From a virus (lineage: Duplodnaviria > Caudoviricetes), in the IMG/VR virus record IMGVR_UViG_3300033405_000003: 64,000 nt of DNA. One strand, 5' to 3'. Positions 2,354 through 35,492 of this stretch are shown here, piece by piece; position 1 is the first letter of the stretch; each line of letters begins with the position of its first letter. The translations under genes and the position numbers were made by a program. The notes under the pieces are model-generated. The model saw only the letters and a list, made by a program, of their open reading frames with translations, was not told the DNA's origin and did not search any database.

Positions 2354-2592
2354 GCTTCAGCCCGAACCGCGGGGACCCGGCGCGGGGGGCGCCGGGTCGG
2401 ATCGGGGCTCGCGACGGGATCGGCCCGCGCGGCGCCGAGGTCGCCCCGTGCCGCGCCCGCGCGACCGGGCCGGGGGCAGCTCTCCCCGGCGCGGGCCGGT
2501 GCGCCAGCGGGGCGCGTAGGGGCATTGCGGGGTGCGAAGGGTTGTCGCGGGGCACGTGCGAACCGGGGTTCACGCCCCGCGCCCCCCGCGAT

Positions 2593-2641
2593 CGTGATTC
2601 CGTGTACTTGGGTAGATGAGTACGTTGGCACCAAGGGTGCA
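2593..2641 (+). promoter_or_regulatory. Four 8-bp repeats followed by a sigma54 promoter (TGGCACCAAGGGTGCA, 2626-2641)
   Basis: cgtgattc cgtgtact tgggtaga tgagtacg, same family as 1233-1296; GG-N10-GC. Confidence 0.7.
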
Positions 2642-2682
2642 AGGCACCCGATTGCGCGCACGTCGCGCGGAAGGTGGGCGAG

Positions 2683-4263
2683 ATGAACGACACGGCGAAA
2701 AAGACAGCGGACGCGGGGGAGACGCGGGGCGGCAAGGCGCAAGCCGACGTCACGGCCCTGCTCAAGTCGCGGCACACGTTCCTGTGGGTGACCTCGCTCG
2801 AAGAGTCGCGCGTCGAGCGCGCCCTAGTCGAGGCCGCGGGCGCGGCGACCTACAAGGTCGTGCTGTGGGATTGCGAGCAAGGCCTCACGAATCCGGACGG
2901 GACGCCGGTCGAGAAGATCCAGGACCCCGCGGCGGCGCTCGCGTGGCTCGGGGCGACCTCGGGGCGCGTCGCGCTCGTGATGCGCGATCTCCACGCGTGG
3001 GTGCGCGACCCGTCGCTGCTCCGCTCGCTCCGCAACGCGCACCGCAGGATGCAGGGGTTGCCCCGCGGGTCGGCGCGGGCCGTGATCGCCCTCACCCCGT
3101 CCGGCGAGGTCCCCCCGGATCTCCGCGGGTGCGCAACGGTCCTGGACTGGCCCCTCCCGGACCGCGCCGAGGTCGCCGCGCTCCTCAAAGACACGCTCGG
3201 CGCGCTCGCCGAGGGCACCCCGGCCAAGGCGCTCGCGGGCGACGCTTTCGAGGCCGCGGTGGACGCGGCCGTGGGGCTCTCGGCGAGCGAGGCCGAAAAT
3301 TGCTACTCGCTCTCGCTCGTGACCCGCAAGGCGATCGACGCGGGCCGGATCGCCGACGACAAGCGGCGGATCATCTCCCGGATCCCCGGCCTCACGTGGG
3401 CCAAGCCGGAGCCCCGCGGCCTGGACGCGGTCGGCGGGCTGGATCTCCTCAAGTCGTGGCTCCGGGAGCGGCGCTCCGCGTTCGGGGTCCGCGCCCGCGC
3501 GTACGGCCTGCCCTCCCCGAAAGGGGCGCTCCTCGTCGGCGTGCCCGGGGGCGGCAAATCGCTCACGGCCAAGGCGCTCGCGTCCTACTTCGAGGTCCCG
3601 CTGATCCGCTGCGACGTCGGCGCGATGCGCTCGAAATTCGTGGGCGACTCCGAGGCCAACGTGCGGCGCATGCTGCAAACGGTCGAGTCGCTCGGCCGGT
3701 GCGTGCTTTGGCTCGACGAAATGGAGAAGGCGCTCGCGGGCGGGTCCGGCCCGCAGGGCGACGGCGGGGTCGCGGCGGACGCGCTCGGAACGATCCTTTC
3801 GTGGATGCAAGATCGCACGTGCGAGGCTTTCGTGCTCGCGACCGCGAACGACGTCCGCGCCCTCCCCCCGGAGTTGCTCCGCAAGGGCCGTTTCGACGAA
3901 GTGTGGTTCGTGGACCTCCCCACGACGGCCGAGCGCGAGGCCGTGCTCCGGGCGGCGCTCTCCGAGCGCGGGCGCGACGCGAGCGAGATCGAGGTGCGCG
4001 AGGTCGCGGAAGCGACCGACGGGTTCGTGGGCGCGGAGCTTGCCGCGCTCGTGCCCGACGCGATGTTCCGCGCGTTCGCGGACAACGAGCGCGCCGTCTC
4101 GACGGCGGACCTCTTGCACGCCGCGCGGCAAGTCACCCCGCTCTCGAAAACGGCGAACAAGCGGATCGAAGACTTGCGCGACTGGGCAAAGGGCCGCGCG
4201 CGCCCCGCATCATCCCCCGAAACCACCACGAGCGGCGCCGCGGGGCGCGCGCTCGACATCTAG
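2683..4263 (+). CDS. AAA+ ATPase, Ycf46-like (degenerate N-terminal AAA plus active C-terminal AAA)
   Basis: Walker A GVPGGGKS, Walker B LWLDEMEK, SRH ATANDVRALPPELLRKGRFDE. Confidence 0.9.
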   Translation: MNDTAKKTADAGETRGGKAQADVTALLKSRHTFLWVTSLEESRVERALVEAAGAATYKVVLWDCEQGLTNPDGTPVEKIQDPAAALAWLGATSGRVALVMRDLHAWVRDPSLLRSLRNAHRRMQGLPRGSARAVIALTPSGEVPPDLRGCATVLDWPLPDRAEVAALLKDTLGALAEGTPAKALAGDAFEAAVDAAVGLSASEAENCYSLSLVTRKAIDAGRIADDKRRIISRIPGLTWAKPEPRGLDAVGGLDLLKSWLRERRSAFGVRARAYGLPSPKGALLVGVPGGGKSLTAKALASYFEVPLIRCDVGAMRSKFVGDSEANVRRMLQTVESLGRCVLWLDEMEKALAGGSGPQGDGGVAADALGTILSWMQDRTCEAFVLATANDVRALPPELLRKGRFDEVWFVDLPTTAEREAVLRAALSERGRDASEIEVREVAEATDGFVGAELAALVPDAMFRAFADNERAVSTADLLHAARQVTPLSKTANKRIEDLRDWAKGRARPASSPETTTSGAAGRALDI

Positions 4264-4285
4264 GAAAAAAGGAAAGAGGCACACA

Positions 4286-5182
4286 ATGGTCACCACGAAA
4301 ACCACCGTCACGATCAAGCCCGGAATCCTCGTGTCGCTCAAGTCGAGCGTCACGGGCGGGGTCACCTACACGCGGACGACGCTCGACGCGCCGAAGCTCC
4401 CCGAGTCGATCGCCGCCGAGCCCGCGGACGTCGCCGCGAACCGCCGCGACGTCGAGCGTTGGGAGACGACGAAGATCGTGGAGGACGCGGCCGAGCACAA
4501 GTGCGCGGAGGACGCGCGCAAAAAGGCGACCGGCGAGATCCGCAAGCTCTGCATCAAGTCGGCGTTCGGGCTGATCTGCCCGCTCGCGTACGAGGCCGAG
4601 CTTACCGCCGCGATCGAGCGCGCCCGCGCGACGGCGACCGGCTTCAACGAGACCGCGCGTTACACGCACGTCAGCCTGCACGTGCTCCGCGGCCACATCG
4701 CGTCGAGCGACGAGGAGGCCGTCAAGGCCATCGGGGGCGAGGTGCGCGGGCTCATCGCGCAAATGGACAGCGCGATCGGCAAGCTCGACCCGGAGGCGAT
4801 CCGGGACGCCGCGAGCAAGGCGCAATCGGTCGCCGCGATGCTCGGCGATGAGCAGTCCGCGGTCGTGAGCGAGGCGGTCAAGGCGGCCCGTGCGGCGGCC
4901 CGCACGATCGCCAAGCGCGTGACCAAGGACGGCGAGATCGCGGCCGTCGTGCTCGCCGACATCAAGCGCGGCGCGATCGAGAAAGCCCGCTTCGCGTTCC
5001 TCGACCTCGACGACGCGGCGCCCGTGGCGCCGGACTCGGAGCAGGCCCCCGCCGCGAATGTGCAGCGCGTCGCCGGGCTCGACCTCGACGCGGACGGCGA
5101 CGAGGTGCCCGGCGAGGTGGAGGCCGCGAGCGGCGCGGAGCCCATGACGGCGTTGATCTTCCCCGCGAGCGAGGTGCAGTGA
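4286..5182 (+). CDS. Helical protein of the AAA operon (DUF3150-like)
   Basis: SD GAGG before ATG; helical content, position and LDLD tail; family call tentative. Confidence 0.6.
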   Translation: MVTTKTTVTIKPGILVSLKSSVTGGVTYTRTTLDAPKLPESIAAEPADVAANRRDVERWETTKIVEDAAEHKCAEDARKKATGEIRKLCIKSAFGLICPLAYEAELTAAIERARATATGFNETARYTHVSLHVLRGHIASSDEEAVKAIGGEVRGLIAQMDSAIGKLDPEAIRDAASKAQSVAAMLGDEQSAVVSEAVKAARAAARTIAKRVTKDGEIAAVVLADIKRGAIEKARFAFLDLDDAAPVAPDSEQAPAANVQRVAGLDLDADGDEVPGEVEAASGAEPMTALIFPASEVQ

Positions 5183-6458: not shown

Positions 6459-6506
6459 CATGATCGCATGGGGACATGAGAAGATGAGCACGGAGGTCAA
6501 AACGCC

Positions 6507-6782
6507 ATGGGAAAGAAAAAGCAGATCGACGAGCGCGCGCTCCTCGCGCGCGTCAACAGGGCGCTCGCCAAAGACGGGGAGCGCGTCATCCGCTCGCGGC
6601 CGATCCGCGGGAAGTTCCACTACGGCAAGCCCGTCTACCCGCCGGAGGGGCGCTTCTACCGGGTGTCCGGCAAGGAGCGCGTCATGGTCGCCCGCGACGT
6701 CGACCTGTGGGAGCTGGCCAAAAAGTTCGATCTCATCAAGCCGTGGGAGGACTACGTGCCGGTCACCCCAGACGGCCCGTGA
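6507..6782 (+). CDS. Small basic protein, paralog of 13655-13945
   Basis: ERALLARVNRALAKD...VDLWELAK pattern. Confidence 0.7.
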   Translation: MGKKKQIDERALLARVNRALAKDGERVIRSRPIRGKFHYGKPVYPPEGRFYRVSGKERVMVARDVDLWELAKKFDLIKPWEDYVPVTPDGP

Positions 6783-6833
6783 CGCCGCGTTCACGGACCG
6801 CCCGAGGGGCGCGTAGTTCCGCGCGGTTGGCGC

Positions 6834-6879
6834 TGGATCGGCGCGTGCAGATAAAAAGTCCACATGGCCATGAGGCCAA
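6834..6879 (+). promoter_or_regulatory. sigma54-like promoter (TGGATCGGCGCGTGCA) followed by 8-bp boxes AAGTCCAC ATGGCCAT GAGGCCAA
   Basis: GG-N10-GC at 6835-6848; boxes at 6856-6879. Confidence 0.6.
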
Positions 6880-6905
6880 AACTAGGGAAAAGAAAGGGCA
6901 TCATC

Positions 6906-7151
6906 ATGAGCAAGGTAGAGAACGAGCTGGCGATGGCGGTGGAGCGGCTCAGCGTCGCGGCTGCGAACGTGACGCTGATCGCGTGCGTGCTCGTGGAGAC
7001 GCGGCGCGCGGACGTCTTCGACGCGCTCCGCTTGGCGTGCGACGAGATGCGCGAGGCGGAAGGCGCCGTGTGCGAGGCCGAGCAGGCGCTCGTGGTGAAC
7101 ATGATCGGCGAGCGGATCGAGGGCGCCGGGGAAGGCGGGATGGTGTCATGA
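6906..7151 (+). CDS. Hypothetical protein
   Basis: First gene after promoter; ATGA overlap with next gene. Confidence 0.6.
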   Translation: MSKVENELAMAVERLSVAAANVTLIACVLVETRRADVFDALRLACDEMREAEGAVCEAEQALVVNMIGERIEGAGEGGMVS

Positions 7152-7357
7152 CGAACGGAACCGAGAAGACGATCATGGTGTGCGCGGTGTGCGGCTCGGA
7201 GAACGTCCAGCACGCCATGTGGGTGTCGGTCAACACGGGTGACGTGCACGACGATTTCGGATCGTGGTGCAGCGGCGACAACTCGTGGTGCGAGGATTGC
7301 GAGGAGCACACCGACCTCGTCGAGAAGCCTGCGGCGGTAGTAGGGGTGTCGCCGTGA
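7148..7357 (+). CDS. Small zinc-ribbon protein
   Basis: CAVCGS...WCEDC. Confidence 0.65.
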   Translation: MTNGTEKTIMVCAVCGSENVQHAMWVSVNTGDVHDDFGSWCSGDNSWCEDCEEHTDLVEKPAAVVGVSP

Positions 7358-25211: not shown

Positions 25212-27071
25212 ATGGCCGTGGTCCGCGTCGAGCTTGGGGCGGGTCAAGGCGGCGAGAAGCTCGCGCGCTTCACGCCGCTCTCCGGCAGCCCGGGGCTCTT
25301 CCGGCGGCTGCTCGGGCCCTACGGCCTGCGGGCCGGGAAACCGGCCGCCTACATCGTCAGGCTCGACGCGGCCCTCTCGGCGTGCGGGGCGCTCCAGAAA
25401 CGCGGCGTCGAGCTGCGCGCCAAGAGCGACGTGCCGAAGGTCATCGCGGCGTCGGCGTGGCGGTGCAAGGCCCAAGACCTCTACCCGTACCAGCGCGTCG
25501 GGGCCGAGTACCTGCACTCGCGCCGGCGCGCGATCCTGGCCGACCAGATGGGCACCGGCAAGACGCCGCAGGCCCTCTCCGCGCTCGACCCGAAAAAGGG
25601 CGCGCTGATCGTGGTCCCCTCCGTCGTGTGCAACAACTGGCTCAAGGAAGCCACGCGCTGGCGCAAGGACCTCGCGGTCCGGATCTGGAAGGAGCCGTAC
25701 CCCGTCTTCCCCGAGCCCGGCGAAGCGATCATCGTGACGTACCCGAAGCTCCCGTACGAGAAGCTCGAGAGGCGCTCGCGGTGCCCGTGGTGCGGGGCGC
25801 TCTCGGTCGTGCCGCTCGACGACGAGGAGATGGCGGCGCTCGCCGGCAAGCAGGTCGCCTGGACGGACAAATGCGACCCCGGGCGCGGCGGCAAATGCGC
25901 GAAGCCCGACGGCACCATCGCGGCGCGCAAGTTCGCGCAGCAGGGCAACGCGTGGCCGGAGTGGGTGTGGGTCGGCGAGGCTCCCAAGCACCCCGTGCAG
26001 CTCGTGGTCGACGAGGGGCACTACTGCAAGAACAAGAACGCGCAGCGGACCATCGCGGTGCGGACCATCGCGGCGGCGTGCGCCGCGGGCGACGCCGGGC
26101 GCGGATCGAGCGTGTGGATCCTGACGGGGACGCCGCTCCTCAACGAGCCGCCCGAGATCTGGTCGCTCTGCCAGCTCTTCCCCGGGCAGACCGGGAAGTT
26201 CGACGACGGCGCGTGGGACACCTTCGGGGGCTGGAACGCGTTCCTCGAGATGTTCGGGGGGCGGAAGCTCGTCGTCGGGGGCCAGGCCCGCGGGTACGAG
26301 TGGACCGGCGACCCGACGCCCGCGGCGCGGGACCACCTAGGCTCGGTGATGCTCCGGCGCATGCGCGACGACGTCCTGCCGGACCTGCCGAAGAAGACGC
26401 GCCGCTACGTGGACGTCGCCATCCCGAAGCGGATGCTCTCGAAGGACGCGATGCTCACGGACAACCTGCTCCTGCTCTTCCGGGAGTGGTCCGACGACAA
26501 GGTGCTCGCGGAGTGCGCCGTGGGCGGGGCGCTCTCGATGCTCCGCAAGGAGCTTGCGGCGCTGAAGCTCGAGACGCTCCTCAAGCTCGTGAGGGAGTAC
26601 GAGGAGAACGCCGAGCCCGTCGTCGCGTTCTCGTACCACCGGGACCCGGTCGAGGCGCTCGGCGCGCGCAGGGGCTGGGCGTGCATCACGGGCGGCACGC
26701 CGGACGGCGAGCGCGCGGCGCTCGTGGAGCAGTTCCAGAAGGGCCAGCTCCGCGGGCTCGCGGGCACCATCGGCGCGATGGGCGTGGGGGTCACGCTCAC
26801 GAGGGCCGCGAACGTGCTCTTCCTCGACCGGGACTTCGTGCCGGCGAACAACCTCCAGGCCGAGGACCGGCTCGTGCGCATCTCGCAGACCCGCGGCGTG
26901 ATCGTCACCATCCTGAACGCCCTGCACCCCATCGACGAGCGCGTGGCGATCATCCTCGAGAAGAAGGAGCGGCTGCTCGAGGCGATGGAGTTGTCCGAGG
27001 ACAAGACCGCGGTCCCGCCACCGCCGCCGAACCCGAACGGCCCCCTCTTCGACCGGGGAGCAGAGACATGA
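25212..27071 (+). CDS. SNF2-family helicase/ATPase
   Basis: LYPYQ, LADQMGTGKT, VVDEGHY, LTGTP, MLRR, QAEDR. Confidence 0.9.
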   Translation: MAVVRVELGAGQGGEKLARFTPLSGSPGLFRRLLGPYGLRAGKPAAYIVRLDAALSACGALQKRGVELRAKSDVPKVIAASAWRCKAQDLYPYQRVGAEYLHSRRRAILADQMGTGKTPQALSALDPKKGALIVVPSVVCNNWLKEATRWRKDLAVRIWKEPYPVFPEPGEAIIVTYPKLPYEKLERRSRCPWCGALSVVPLDDEEMAALAGKQVAWTDKCDPGRGGKCAKPDGTIAARKFAQQGNAWPEWVWVGEAPKHPVQLVVDEGHYCKNKNAQRTIAVRTIAAACAAGDAGRGSSVWILTGTPLLNEPPEIWSLCQLFPGQTGKFDDGAWDTFGGWNAFLEMFGGRKLVVGGQARGYEWTGDPTPAARDHLGSVMLRRMRDDVLPDLPKKTRRYVDVAIPKRMLSKDAMLTDNLLLLFREWSDDKVLAECAVGGALSMLRKELAALKLETLLKLVREYEENAEPVVAFSYHRDPVEALGARRGWACITGGTPDGERAALVEQFQKGQLRGLAGTIGAMGVGVTLTRAANVLFLDRDFVPANNLQAEDRLVRISQTRGVIVTILNALHPIDERVAIILEKKERLLEAMELSEDKTAVPPPPPNPNGPLFDRGAET

Positions 27072-27271
27072 GCAAGGCGTGGACGGAGCCCGGGCAGTGC
27101 TCGAGCTGCAAGCACTGCTCGATGGACATGGACATGTCGCCGTTCTGCGTGCACCCCGAGGTCTTGAAGTTCTTCCGCTACGGCGTGAACCTCACGAAGG
27201 CCGTCGCGGAGTTCTGCGGGGAAGACCTCAAGCTGCGCGAAGAGAGAAAAGAAGGAGAACAGGATCGATGA
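27068..27271 (+). CDS. Small Cys-rich protein; C-terminal half also occurs at 33678-33781
   Basis: CSSCKHC...FRYGVNLTKAVAEFCGEDLKLRE. Confidence 0.6.
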   Translation: MSKAWTEPGQCSSCKHCSMDMDMSPFCVHPEVLKFFRYGVNLTKAVAEFCGEDLKLREERKEGEQDR

Positions 27272-31267: not shown

Positions 31268-32131
31268 ATGACGCTGCCGAGCTTCTGCAAGTCGTGCGGG
31301 GAACGCCTCGGGGCGATGGACCGCGACTACTGCCCGGCGCCGCGCTGCCAGGAGCGCGCGCGGGCGGACGCGATGCGGGCGCGCAGGCCGCGCATCCTCG
31401 ACGACTTCGAGTACGACGCGGGCGGCATGCCCAAGGAGCGCCTGCTCGCGCTCCTGGCGGAGGACGCCAAGAAGTACGGTTGCGACCCCTCCGGTGAGGC
31501 TGTGAGCGACCTCGGGCACATGACCGACTTCGTCCTCCTCACCGAGAAGGTGAAGAAGCACCCGTGGGACGACTGCGCGAAGTTCCTCGCGGAGCGCGAG
31601 GAGATCAAGCGGAAGATCGAGGGGGCGAGGAGGAAGGCTCGGGCCGAGACCCGCAGCAAGTCGATTCCCTTCGCCGGCGGGCGTTTCGAGAGTGCCCCGA
31701 TCGCGGCGCGCTCACGCCCTTACTCGACTTTCGGGGGGTCGTACGAGGGAACGGTCCCTGACCGCTACGGCCTGGACGCCCGGCCACCGCAAGCGGTGTT
31801 CGAGGACGCGATCAAGTTCGGTCCCGTGGTGATTGACTCCGACGAGACGAGGGTCTTCCAAGCAGCGCCGCAGGCGTACTTCCAGGGGACGCACCTCCTC
31901 GTCAGCCCGAGAATCGCGCCGGTGTTCGTGCTCTGCGACCTCCGCGTCGGCACCATGAGTCAGTTCAGCTTTGGCCCGATCCCGATGACGGCGTTCACGG
32001 AGTACGCCGTCGGCATCACGCTCGGGATCGATGCGGTGACCCCGGGCATCCTCCTTACGTTGATGGTGCGGAACATCTCGCCGTCGCCGAGCACGTTCGA
32101 GGCTTTCCTCAGGGGAAAGGTCATGCGATGA
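31268..32131 (+). CDS. Two-part hypothetical protein: zinc-finger-like N-terminus, beta-sandwich-like C-terminus
   Basis: CKSCG...C; C-terminal alternating hydrophobic strands. Confidence 0.6.
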   Translation: MTLPSFCKSCGERLGAMDRDYCPAPRCQERARADAMRARRPRILDDFEYDAGGMPKERLLALLAEDAKKYGCDPSGEAVSDLGHMTDFVLLTEKVKKHPWDDCAKFLAEREEIKRKIEGARRKARAETRSKSIPFAGGRFESAPIAARSRPYSTFGGSYEGTVPDRYGLDARPPQAVFEDAIKFGPVVIDSDETRVFQAAPQAYFQGTHLLVSPRIAPVFVLCDLRVGTMSQFSFGPIPMTAFTEYAVGITLGIDAVTPGILLTLMVRNISPSPSTFEAFLRGKVMR

Positions 32132-32769
32132 GGCTCGTCACCGCCACGCCGAACGCGCTCTACTGCGACACCGACCAGGTGCTCACGCCGGTAGCTTGCG
32201 CGCTGCTCAAGTCGAGCGGCATCCGCGGCGTCTGGCGCTACCTCTCGGGCCTCTCGCCGACCGAGCGCGACGCCATCCTCACGAGCGGGCTCGAGCTGTA
32301 TTTCGTGAACTACGCCCACGCCGCGGGCTGGACGCCGTCGGCGGCCGGCGGCCTCGCGGACGCGGAGCGCGACCTCGCGCGGCTCGAGGCGCTCGCGATC
32401 CCGGTCGGCGTGCACTGCGTTTTCGACCTCGAAGGCCCGGGCGGCACGGAGAGCGAGGTCGTGGCGCACGTGAGCACGCACGGCCACACGATGTGGGGGG
32501 CGAAGTACCTGCCGGCCCTCTACGTCGGGGAGGGCTCGATGCTGACGAGCGCGACGCTCTACGCCCTGCCCTCGATGCTTTACTGGCACTCGTGCTCCCA
32601 GCTCCGCGACGGGCCGAGCGGGCTCGAGCCCCTCTGCGGCTACGCGGTCCAGCAGGGCCGGCCGTTCGAGGTCGTGCTCGACGACGGCGCGGGCACCAAG
32701 GTCACGATCGACTACGACTACGTGGACGAGGACTTCAAGGGCAGACTGCCCATCGGGGTCGCTGCATGA
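32128..32769 (+). CDS. DUF1906/Rv2525c-like glycoside hydrolase (putative peptidoglycan hydrolase)
   Basis: D...GIRGVWRYL...LSPTE...G-x-ADA...VFDLEG...LYVG pattern. Confidence 0.65.
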   Translation: MRLVTATPNALYCDTDQVLTPVACALLKSSGIRGVWRYLSGLSPTERDAILTSGLELYFVNYAHAAGWTPSAAGGLADAERDLARLEALAIPVGVHCVFDLEGPGGTESEVVAHVSTHGHTMWGAKYLPALYVGEGSMLTSATLYALPSMLYWHSCSQLRDGPSGLEPLCGYAVQQGRPFEVVLDDGAGTKVTIDYDYVDEDFKGRLPIGVAA

Positions 32770-33084
32770 ATGCCGTCATATTGCCGTTGACGATCCGGCG
32801 CCGCGTGGACTACGTTTGCCATTCGCGATGGCGCCCCCCAAGCACACCGTCGAGGGCCGCACGATGACCTTCGACGAGCGCAACAAGATCCACGGCGCGA
32901 TCGAGCGCCACGCGGAGCGCGCGGGGCTCGAGGCCGAGACCGGCGGCGGGTTCCTGAAGACCATCGGCGACGTCGAGGATGAGGACGACCACTGGGCCGT
33001 CCCCGTCATCATCCGGATCCCGAAGCGGTTCGTCCGCGGCGACTAGGCGCTGAAAACAACAAGAGAGAGAAAGAGAGAGCACCC

Positions 33085-33360
33085 ATGGCATCGGAGCTGA
33101 TCCACGAAGCGATGACGACGCCGTTCGACGGCAAGCACTGGATGGCGATCACCGACGAGACCGGCGACACCAAGATCATGTGGTCGAAGGACAATGAGGA
33201 GGAGATCGAGAACGCCCGCCGCAACTTCAACGACATGAAGAAGAGGGGCTACACGGCCTTCCGCGTCGTCGGCAAGGCGGGCGAGCCCGGCGAGCAGATG
33301 AAGGAGTTCGACCCCGACGCCGAGCGCATCATCTTCACGAAGCCCCAAGCGGGCGGCTGA
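33085..33360 (+). CDS. Small protein with C-terminal Gly-Gly
   Basis: DETGDTKIMW...ARRNF...GYTAF...FDPDAERIIFTKPQAGG-stop. Confidence 0.8.
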   Translation: MASELIHEAMTTPFDGKHWMAITDETGDTKIMWSKDNEEEIENARRNFNDMKKRGYTAFRVVGKAGEPGEQMKEFDPDAERIIFTKPQAGG

Positions 33361-33362
33361 TC

Positions 33363-34878
33363 ATGCCCCTCGTCGGCGGCCAGGTGGCAGAGCCCATTCA
33401 CGGCGCGCAGCCGATCAACGCCGGCGCCGGCGTCGGCTACCAGTGGATTGAGGTTGACGGCGGGACCGGCTACGGGCAGGCGCTCATCATCGCCCAGACG
33501 ATCACGACGAGCGCGGCGAGCACGACGACGAACATCATCACCATGGAGGCCCAAGGCATGAACGCGGACGCCTGGAGAGAATGGAACGCGGTCTACACGC
33601 TCACGGGCGGGACCGGCTGCAACCACTGCGTGACCAAGTACGAGGCCACCGGCTGGCCGTTCAACGTCACGTATATCACCGCTGGGGGCTGAATCTCAGC
33701 AAGGCGGTCTCGGAGTTCTGTGGAGAAGGCTTGAAGCTTCGTGAGCCGCGCGAGACGAAAGACGAGGGTGCGCCGCAGTGAGAATTGAGCAGAAAGGAGA
33801 TTGGATGGACGTCAAGATCGATCAGGGTGAGATTGAGCAGGCCGTGATGATGTGGCTCGAGAACAAGCACGGCATCTCCATCACGAAGGTGAGCGAGGGT
33901 GCCCACGGTGGTTCGAAGGCTCAATGGATGGCCATGCACAGCGGTGCGACGGTCGGAATCGGTGCGGTCACGGTCACGTTCACGAACGTGCGCGGCGCGC
34001 CGCTAGCCGGCCCCTACAGAACACCCAGTACCACATGACTACGTGCCCGAATTGTACTTTTAGTCACGTGGCCACTTGCGCGTGGTGCCGCCCGCTGAGC
34101 GACCAAGTTACGACCCGGGGCCCTTTCCCGAGATGCCCGTGGGCAGGGGATGGCGGCGCGAGATCGCCGAGCCGTTCGTGAAGAAGATCGGTTGGGCGCC
34201 GAGCGGCATAAAGTTCGGAAGCGGCCCTCTCGTCGATGGCCCGGAGGGGATGGTGCGGATGGCAGGGGAGAGGGCGCGCAAGGATACGGGACGGCTGCCA
34301 CGATCAACCACTTCGCGTGGAACGTGTGGAACGACCGCTACGAGCGCATCCACGAGGCGGGCGCGCGCGCCGCCGAGATCCAGCGCTACTCGCGCCGCAA
34401 GCTCTCCGAGGCCGAGCTTCTCGCGGCCCTCGAGCAGGAGAAGAAGGCGCGCGAGGAGGCGGAGAAGCGCGCGGCAGCGGCCCTTGCCGCGGAGAAGCGT
34501 GCGGAGGACCTCCTCCGGCTCTGCCTCTCGCCGCAGCAGATCGAGGACCTCGAGAAGAAGAAGTGCTTCTACGTCGAGATCGAGGGCAAGGCCGGCAAGA
34601 AGGAGCGCTACCGTATCGACCGCGGGAGCCATGGCAACGTCAAGCAGATCGACGAGCGGGGATCCATCATCCGCTCGTTCTGCATCCAGCCGTCGGGCGT
34701 GCCGGCCGGCGACATCCTCCTCACGCAGAAGCTCTGGCTCGAGGCGAGCGAGGAGACGCGCGAGGAGTTCTGGGCGACGGCGAACATCACGACGCTGATG
34801 CGCGAGAAAGACATCCCGCACACGGTGCCGCGCAAGGAGCGGCGGCGCTACGCCGAGGCCCACGGCCTGCTCCACTGA
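33363..34878 (+). pseudogene. Partner gene of the GG protein, apparently split by a ~600-bp insert
   Basis: 5' part has AWREWN; 3' part resumes near 34282 with AWNVWN, coiled coil and FCIQP..VPAGDILLTQKL, without its own SD/ATG. Confidence 0.55.
33778..34038 (+). CDS. Hypothetical protein inside the insert
   Basis: AGGAG SD before an internal ATG; atypical codon usage. Confidence 0.5.
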   Translation: MRIEQKGDWMDVKIDQGEIEQAVMMWLENKHGISITKVSEGAHGGSKAQWMAMHSGATVGIGAVTVTFTNVRGAPLAGPYRTPSTT

Positions 34879-34910
34879 CAATACACACGAGCGAAAGAGA
34901 GAACAGCGAA

Positions 34911-35492
34911 ATGGAGACGATCCGGTTCCAGTGCGATTTCTGCGGCATGAAGTCCGAAGAGGAATCAGTCGCATGGCGTAGACCTCGATGCTCCATCGAA
35001 CTTGTGATGCGGGGCAGCCGTTTTGCCACGGTCTCGGGCTCGCATCCACTCTACGGCCTGCCGCCCGGCGCGGGCGCGACGCCCGAGAGCGCCGAGGACG
35101 AGCGCTGGGCCGCGACGCTCTGCGATCGCTGCATGAAGCGCGTCGCGGCGCTCTTCGGCCTGAACCTCGAGACGCCCGAGGAGGCGCGCTGGCGCCAGAA
35201 CGAGTTCATGCGCCACGTGGCGTCGGAGGCCGCGCGCGCGAACGGCGCGTCGCCCGGGTCCGACATGCGCGGCGTGATGACGGACCAGTTCCCGACGCCG
35301 TCCGTGCCGGACGCGGTGGCGGTGGCGGCGCGCACGTCCCCGTCCGCCCCGGTGAGCGTCATCCAATACGAGACCCCACGGCGGGTCACGTCGCCGAAGG
35401 ACGGCGAGAGCGCGGAGAGCGACGCCGCGCCGGGGACGCTCGAGAAGAACAGCAAGGACAAGCCCGACGCCGACGCCGAAGCACCCGAGTAA
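34911..35492 (+). CDS. Hypothetical protein with CxxC pairs
   Basis: QCDFCG...LCDRC. Confidence 0.55.
   Translation: METIRFQCDFCGMKSEEESVAWRRPRCSIELVMRGSRFATVSGSHPLYGLPPGAGATPESAEDERWAATLCDRCMKRVAALFGLNLETPEEARWRQNEFMRHVASEAARANGASPGSDMRGVMTDQFPTPSVPDAVAVAARTSPSAPVSVIQYETPRRVTSPKDGESAESDAAPGTLEKNSKDKPDADAEAPE

Follow-up and report, generated by a model that had tools for sequence, protein, structure and literature searches.

Giant phages commonly carry a pair of adjacent genes, so far undescribed, in which the first gene encodes a small protein with a C-terminal Gly-Gly and the second a partner protein with one invariant cysteine. We analysed this pair in a stretch of 64,000 nucleotides (hereafter the window) of the IMG/VR virus record IMGVR_UViG_3300033405_000003 (Duplodnaviria; Caudoviricetes). 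The window derives from a phage contig of approximately 219 kb, has a GC content of 68 per cent, and carries mostly short genes on the + strand. The terminal Gly-Gly, the partner cysteine, and the adjacency of the two genes recur in dozens of divergent loci, which is beyond chance. Structure prediction suggests that the two proteins probably form a complex in which the Gly-Gly tail is held at a conserved pocket around the cysteine. In the phage of the window, the partner gene is split by an insertion. The pair is laid out as follows:

33085..33360, + strand: small-protein gene; 91 aa, ending PQAGG, stop codon TGA; third-position GC (GC3) 0.96; homologs found
33363..33692, + strand: 5' part of the partner gene, with homology to the N-terminus of intact partners over 33363-33671; GC3 0.92
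33672..34284, + strand: insertion splitting the partner gene; 613 nt; GC 62 per cent, versus 67-68 per cent in the flanking gene parts
34285..34878, + strand: 3' part of the partner gene; GC3 0.96; 78-85 per cent identical to intact homologs

Conservation and linkage of the two genes

An earlier note on this DNA, made from the letters and a list of open reading frames (ORFs), described a 91-aa protein ending in PQAGG. This description stands: the ORF at 33085-33360 is closed by TGA, and its high GC3 indicates that it is coding. Its last two codons, for Gly90 and Gly91, are GGC GGC (33352-33357). In an alignment with its homologs (n = 41, 47-89 per cent identity; alignment A1), all 42 of the close small proteins end in the same residue, Gly91, and Gly90 is kept in at least 90 per cent of them. 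More distant small proteins were reached via the partner domain. Among their 28 distinct loci, 23 encode a protein that ends with Gly-Gly directly before the stop codon, three end with AG or PG, one ends with GGSR, and one continues in frame after the Gly-Gly. A long form of the small protein (257 aa) likewise ends with Gly-Gly. Hence the feature from which the earlier note had started is nearly invariant across homologs.

The terminal glycines are encoded by GGC or GGT across homologs, never forming GGAGG, and the Shine-Dalgarno sequence of the partner, where visible, falls 3' of the stop codon of the small gene. Codon usage and Shine-Dalgarno position together rule out a constraint imposed on these codons by the ribosome-binding site, and the synonymous variation between GGC and GGT argues for selection on the protein.

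Linkage of the two genes is similarly tight. At the 33 IMG/VR loci that were found by the partner domain (mostly on contigs of 100-530 kb), a homolog of the small protein is encoded directly upstream, the exceptions being three loci situated at the end of a contig and two to three partner paralogs that stand alone. The linkage is kept in the distant phages LR756511 and Rctr197k, at 28-41 per cent identity. The partner is thus the directly downstream gene in nearly all loci, in agreement with the expectation of the earlier note that the genes would stay adjacent. Across the examined loci, we found neither a third conserved neighbour gene nor a ubiquitin-activating (E1) or JAB gene adjoining the pair. 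In one lineage (L018/L019, 1478-4291), the small protein and the partner are fused in frame (…FVPPMQGG-LMVMLDLETN…); the host of this fusion is a complete 435-kb phage without ThiF or JAB. The small protein of loci L024 and L027 ends with QGGSR.

Several phages carry additional copies of the partner. A 436-kb phage (L009; IMGVR_UViG_3300032782_000001) has one Gly-Gly gene with two tandem partner paralogs after it, and a third on the opposite strand (2377-4312, 6481-7197). Rctr197k has two partner paralogs (Rctr197k_112 and _110), and L025 and L038 have partner paralogs without a small gene nearby. About 1.5 kb upstream of the pair of Rctr197k (L004, KX853510.1; locus 1324-1578) lie an annotated CRISPR repeat region and a transposase-like gene.

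Fold of the small protein

The AlphaFold model of the small protein has a predicted local distance difference test (pLDDT) value of 75 and consists of strand-strand-helix-strand-strand-strand, followed by the flexible tail TKPQAGG. The order of these elements is that of ubiquitin, and the predicted topology can be called beta-grasp-like. Its structural matches are weak but nearly all of them are ubiquitin-like or beta-grasp domains; the best are ubiquitin, SUMO, NEDD8, UBX, PB1, MoaD, TtuB, and BubA. Sequence searches gave no such signal. Specifically, none of 42 small-protein members matched the Pfam ubiquitin, ThiS, Urm1, and similar families at E-values up to 10, the profile of alignment A1 matched no PDB sequence, and comparison of A1 with a manually entered ThiS sequence (hhalign) gave no match.

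The partner family

The partner gene starts with an ATG at 33363, 2 nt past the stop codon of the small gene. Across its two parts, the gene encodes the motif W-x-x-W-N twice (WREWN at 33573-33587 in the 5' part, WNVWN at 34318-34332 in the 3' part), a long helix or coiled coil encoded at about 34360-34540 in the 3' part, and a C-terminal domain with the pattern RYRI...GNV...FCIQP...QKL...AN (34489-34875), in which the codon of the invariant cysteine occupies 34681-34683.

An exhaustive profile search with the C-terminal domain retrieved 7,223 cluster representatives (50 per cent identity) at E-values up to 0.001, and 3,942 at E-values up to 1e-10. The family is nearly absent from 185,579 species genomes, where the matches are two short contigs of metagenome-assembled genomes only, and among 50,697 phage records it was found in only two uncultured giant phages (tblastn). 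Judged by these searches, the C-terminal-domain family is large and virus-restricted. We considered Agrobacterium phage Atu_ph07 as a cultured relative, given a BFVD match (E-value 4.6e-3), and rejected it: profile searches of its genome found no partner, and the sole small-protein hit (E-value 0.04) lies inside an unrelated protein.

In 213 diverse sequences, C65, D75, Q80, and N99 (domain numbering) are identical throughout, Q17 and F27 are identical in 212, and N50 is identical in 208 (98 per cent). The cysteine that the earlier note had singled out is therefore invariant in this set. His48 is identical in 169 of the 213 sequences (79 per cent) and is elsewhere replaced by Ala, Ser, Gln, or Thr.

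The model of an intact homolog has pLDDT values above 90 over the C-terminal domain, which consists of a helix, four strands, a loop, two helices, a short strand, and a helix, with the cysteine at the end of strand 4. Over about 105 residues, this domain can be aligned structurally, with weak matches, to the ubiquitin-conjugating (E2) enzymes Ubc13, UbcH5, Ubc9, and Ubc2 and to the central domain of FANCL. In E2 enzymes, an HPN motif follows strand 4 and precedes the cysteine by about 8-10 residues. The partner departs from this arrangement, in that its (H)-G-N-V motif precedes the cysteine by 15 residues and, in the model, falls between strands 2 and 3. A search of the whole PDB with the partner model (VIA) was dominated by coiled-coil matches, which left the globular domain uninformed. 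The N-terminal region of the partner is rich in Thr, Ser, and Asn, ranges in length from 0 to more than 250 residues, and carries two to four W-x-x-W-N-x-x-Y motifs (33363-33671 and 34285-34360 in the window; alignment A4); its pLDDT is below 50 in AlphaFold models.

No family in the databases scanned accounts for the domain. Scans of both proteins of the pair and of the ORFs in the insertion with Pfam, PHROGs, NCBIfam, and PADLOC gave nothing significant, and the only Pfam hits of the partner domain were to DUF4314, below threshold. No E2 family (UQ_con, Prok-E2) was recovered in Pfam scans of 39 and 61 partner members or with PADLOC, and comparison of the partner alignment A6 with a manually entered E2 core (hhalign) gave a probability of 0.2 per cent. 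The partner profile (A4) had no match among PDB sequences, while a language-model atlas and a structure atlas returned unnamed relatives only.

The predicted complex

We co-folded the small protein with the C-terminal domain of the window's own partner, using alignments built in this analysis. The predicted interface has an ipSAE (interaction prediction score from aligned errors) of 0.66 (0.59-0.67 across runs), as compared to 0.12 for the best of three controls; of 80 solved complexes, 58 attain the mark applied to this score, as do 2 of 110 mismatched pairs. The runs share at least 90 per cent of their contacts, and the pLDDT of the partner chain is at least 73. The interface comprises positions 17, 48-49, 65-72, 75, 78-90, and 97-99 of the partner and residues 81-91 of the small protein, with the partner loop 65-72 predicted to contact the tail residues 86-91. 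Because this interface holds nearly all of the invariant partner positions, the invariant surface of the partner would be the surface that holds the tail.

These observations suggest a self-contained two-gene cassette of giant phages. Its first gene would supply a small beta-grasp protein, shaped like ubiquitin or MoaD, with a free Gly-Gly end. The partner, usually translationally coupled to the small gene, would combine a variable Thr/Trp-rich N-terminus, a long helix, and the conserved alpha/beta domain. The sheet of the small protein would pack on the helix that follows the invariant cysteine, and the extended TKPQAGG would run along the loop Cys-Ile-Gln-Pro-x-Gly-Val-Pro, with the terminal glycines in a pocket of the invariant Gln17, Asn50, Cys65, Asp75, Gln80, and Asn99. 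The tail would thus enter its pocket much as it does in MoaD-MoaE or in a ubiquitin-charged E2. Such a pocket would be the likely active site, operating on the Gly-Gly carboxylate through a thioester or acyl intermediate on the cysteine. Activation of the Gly-Gly would need an enzyme of the ThiF type, supplied by the host or encoded at another place in the phage. The probable part of this proposal is the complex itself; covalent chemistry at the partner cysteine is a tentative extension of it, and true protein tagging is unlikely.

Interruption of the partner gene in the window

Although the start codon 2 nt downstream, the W-x-x-W-N repeats, the coiled coil, and the cysteine domain described in the earlier note are all present, 33363-34878 is not one ORF, as it is split by 613 nt. 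The frame that opens at 33363 ends at a TGA (33690-33692) inside the insertion and yields a product of 109 aa. Relatives encode the intact partner in one ORF, the length of which is 292 aa in L003, 336 aa in L002, 234 aa in L001, and 280 aa on a JGI contig. The 109-aa ORF of the window aligns to the N-terminal part of the intact partners, and the 3' frame aligns to their C-terminal part (L003, L002). At the DNA level, homology to intact relatives is lost near 33376-33605 and regained at 34291-34304. Removal of 33672-34284 in silico restores an uninterrupted frame of 300 aa, which is 72-76 per cent identical from end to end to P0047, P0050, P0052, and P0054. We found partner proteins with the same split on eight contigs, indicating a real variant and no assembly error. 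For the 3' half (34285-34878), we found neither a convincing start codon nor a separate ribosome-binding site.

The insertion is composed of several pieces, one of which resembles a gene that resides elsewhere in the window:

33674..33781, + strand: left piece of the insertion; 35 codons and a stop codon, a 3' fragment of a paralog of the 67-aa Cys-rich gene; reads YHRWGLNLSKAVSEFCGEGLKLREPRE...
33805..34038, + strand: ORF in the insertion; 77 aa, with a GGAG ribosome-binding site; single-member cluster, known only from this phage
34133..34284, + strand: right piece of the insertion; 5' part of another ORF (MPVGRGWRREIAEPFVKK...), which continues beyond the right junction into the partner's 3' part, in a different frame
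27068..27271, + strand: resident 67-aa Cys-rich gene, outside the pair; similar at the 3' end to the initial 100 nt of the insertion

The left piece has tblastx and blastn matches to 27170-27262 of the window and to L003 1912-2010 (protein alignment A3), and the left junction shows a GTCACG microhomology with the donor-like Cys-rich gene (DNA alignment A8). Along the right piece, the frame of the ORF has a GC3 of 0.82-0.85 up to about 34230, after which the high-GC3 frame is that of the partner. Neither this ORF (34133-34284) nor the 77-aa ORF (33805-34038, in the Pfam, PHROGs, NCBIfam, and PADLOC scans) matched a family. An Rfam scan of 33000-35000 at E-values up to 1 returned no intron family; on this result, and because the insertion opens with a fragment of a protein-coding gene, a self-splicing intron was rejected. 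We read the insertion, from its sequence, as the probable product of an illegitimate recombination that brought in a piece of another phage region. The cassette in this phage would be either inactivated or working from two fragments.

Relatives share the 67-aa Cys-rich protein (C-x2-C-x2-C ... FC), which in L003 is encoded at 1810-2013. Upstream of the pair, the window also encodes a 213-aa protein (32128-32769) that matches the Rv2525c-like glycoside-hydrolase-like domain (PF08924, E-value 6.9e-9). This gene is syntenic with L002 and L003, both of which have dihydrofolate reductase (DHFR) and HAD-phosphatase genes upstream.

Adenylating enzymes in pair-bearing phages

The earlier note saw no E1/ThiF or JAB gene at the locus, and the wider survey agrees with it: at none of the loci examined was an E1 found in the 4-6 kb around the pair. 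ThiF is encoded elsewhere in six of the 12 pair-bearing phage records and stands beside JAB wherever this was checked. In several pair-bearing giant phages, a gene cluster tens of kb away from the pair encodes a JAB/MPN+ peptidase with a HTHPNFSAHYSGRD motif, a ThiF-type E1 that is short (about 200-217 aa), a coiled-coil protein, and an unknown protein of 214 aa; it occurs in L006 (LR756511.1 279203-282730), G001 (335.5-337.3 kb), G004 (20.6-21.7 kb), and G005 (154.4-155.7 kb), with no ubiquitin-like gene visible inside. This cluster may be a separate system or the missing activator of the Gly-Gly protein. The ThiF gene of Rctr197k adjoins a tRNA array.

Comparison with known systems

The pair shares with ubiquitin and E2 enzymes, and with the bacterial Bil (BilA/BilB) and Bub operons, a small protein with a free Gly-Gly, here predicted to be beta-grasp-like, and one invariant cysteine, here in a domain modelled as a helix, a four-strand meander, a Cys loop, and helices. 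The co-fold would likewise bring the tail to the Cys loop and pack the sheet on the helix after the cysteine. The MoaD-MoaE (molybdopterin synthase) and ThiS/TtuB sulfur-carrier systems are alike in having a small subunit, in the phage a predicted beta-grasp, with a hydrophobic last strand and a Pro-rich tail, whose Gly-Gly enters, or in the phage would enter, a pocket of the partner; adjacency and co-translation of the two genes are a further likeness. However, the small protein has no Pfam ThiS/MoaD match, the partner is unrelated to MoaE, ThiG, and TtuA, and no adenylating enzyme is linked to the pair. Against the KTSC domain (PDB 4rgi) and Pfam DUF4314, both of unknown function, all scores of the partner are below the curated thresholds, and we know of no invariant cysteine or Gly-Gly partner for either.

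Another parallel is the E2-only type of CBASS (cyclic-oligonucleotide-based antiphage signalling system), which likewise has two proteins and no E1, and in which a C-terminal Gly tail enters a Cys-bearing partner, as is predicted for the phage pair (Yan et al., bioRxiv 10.1101/2022.05.25.493364). Needing no E1, its E2 removes the residue after Gly406 of cGAS and produces both a thioester and an isopeptide; the residue after the glycine is required for cleavage, and His87 is essential (bioRxiv 10.1101/2022.05.25.493364). In the phage pair, by contrast, nearly all glycines are directly followed by the stop codon and the neighbouring histidine is dispensable. Furthermore, the tail belongs to the enzyme in E2-CBASS and to a small dedicated carrier here, and E2-CBASS is a bacterial defence system, whereas the pair family is virus-restricted.

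Alternative explanations

Several observations weigh against the proposed complex with the tail in the Cys pocket. The co-fold score expresses how confident the model is in its own prediction, is no measurement, and was obtained on alignments from this analysis. The earlier note had suggested co-folding the pair to see whether the Gly-Gly comes to the cysteine; the prediction passed its controls and placed the tail on the Cys loop, but the exact Gly91-Cys65 pair is not among the lowest-error contacts, even though both residues are within the interface. Since His48 beside the pocket is only 79 per cent conserved, there would be no Cys-His dyad. The lineage in which both genes are fused shows that a free Gly-Gly end is not universal. 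No adenylating enzyme is linked to the pair. Four records that are at least 90 per cent complete have no ThiF, for which reason we reject an obligatory phage E1. Finally, eight contigs of this phage carry the broken partner, and this persistence suggests that the cassette is dispensable, at least here.

Which chemistry the pocket would serve can be judged against several rival explanations. If the pair performed true ubiquitin-like conjugation, the partner would be a diverged E2 that forms a thioester after ThiF-type adenylation and transfers the small protein to phage or host lysines. The invariant cysteine with the Gly-Gly tail predicted on its loop, the helix, four-strand meander, Cys loop, and two helices that align over about 105 residues with Ubc13, UbcH5, Ubc9, Ubc2, and FANCL, the conserved Asn50 of the G-N-V motif, which recalls the HPN asparagine of E2 enzymes, and the ThiF genes elsewhere in half of the pair-bearing records, beside JAB where this was checked, are all consistent with it. 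We nevertheless regard it as unlikely, given that ubiquitin-conjugating (UBC) families give no sequence or profile signal, that in the model the His/Asn motif precedes strands 3-4 when in E2 enzymes it follows strand 4, that half of the records, complete ones included, have no ThiF, and that an E1 or JAB gene never adjoins the pair. The proposal of the earlier note that the genes form a ubiquitin-like conjugation pair thus survives in part: the Gly-Gly, the cysteine, the adjacency, the co-fold, and the beta-grasp-like topology fit it, whereas the unlinked E1, the records without ThiF, and the interrupted partner in this phage do not. The checks that the note had named for refuting it, on conservation of the Gly-Gly and of the cysteine and on adjacency, did not do so. 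Its further suggestion of a decoy against Bil or CBASS Cap2 finds no support, as six proteins of the family had no hit to BilA-D or Cap2/Cap3 in PADLOC-DB at E-values up to 1. The more specific scenario of minimal phage tagging, with the Gly-Gly protein loaded on the cysteine of a domain that is either new and non-UBC or an extremely diverged E2, with no dedicated E1, and with hijacking of the host ThiF/MoeB or a new activation chemistry before host or phage targets are marked, is as a whole a long shot.

An E1-free activity is also conceivable, in which the partner would be a Gly-Gly-directed cysteine peptidase or transpeptidase whose cysteine attacks the bond after the Gly-Gly, for precursor processing or acyl-enzyme transfer. 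The fusion ...PPMQGG-LMVML... (L018, L019) and the GGSR ends (L024, L027) would offer a scissile bond after the Gly-Gly, the E2 of E2-CBASS is a precedent (bioRxiv 10.1101/2022.05.25.493364), and the tail is predicted at the Cys loop. Yet a glycine directly precedes the stop codon in 26 of 28 distinct loci and in all 42 close homologs, so that neither a scissile bond nor a source of energy is at hand, the histidine near the cysteine is replaced in 21 per cent of sequences while His87 is essential in E2-CBASS, and no peptidase family or fold matched the partner; we consider this activity improbable. Even less credence is due to a sulfur carrier of the MoaD/ThiS/TtuB kind, with a thiocarboxylate on the Gly-Gly and the partner acting through a Cys persulfide or as the user of the thiocarboxylate, for example in thiolating phage tRNA or DNA. 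The last strand and tail of the small protein (DAERIIFTKPQAGG) resemble those of MoaD (DGDEVAFFPPVTGG; MoaD sequence entered manually; hhalign pairwise E-value 0.02, probability 2 per cent), the fold matches include MoaD and TtuB, and giant phages have many tRNAs, with the ThiF gene of Rctr197k beside a tRNA array. Nonetheless, there is no ThiS/MoaD family match, half of the records have no ThiF, and the partner has no known sulfurtransferase fold and combines a low-complexity N-terminus with a coiled coil, which is unusual for such enzymes. We give the least weight to a fourth explanation, under which the neighbours bind or cooperate without any role of the tail or the cysteine, or do not bind at all, and the Gly-Gly and the cysteine are merely structural. 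It gains from the weak fold evidence, the missing family matches, and the fact that a co-fold can err, as in the 2 of 110 mismatched pairs that reach the mark. It is hard to reconcile with Cys, Asp, Gln, and Asn residues identical in 213 of 213 sequences, with a near-universal Gly-Gly under synonymous codon change across 26-90 per cent identity, with the coincidence of conserved residues and predicted interface, and with the tight linkage and occasional fusion of the genes. An obligate complex with the Gly-Gly tail at the conserved Cys pocket is the reading that we prefer.

Implications

In the literature on phage ubiquitin-like systems and huge phages, we found no description of the pair, and for DUF4314 we found no paper. 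Recent work has connected bacterial ubiquitin-like tagging with defence against phages (Bil, CBASS Cap2). If the reading offered here is true, a Gly-Gly protein and Cys partner encoded by phages would represent the viral counterpart of this defence, or a new kind of two-part enzyme. Even a binding mode for the partner family would annotate giant-phage genes by the thousand. Being small, the cassette is easily testable, and the split partner in a persisting phage population is a natural disruption, which shows that under some conditions the phage can do without the cassette.

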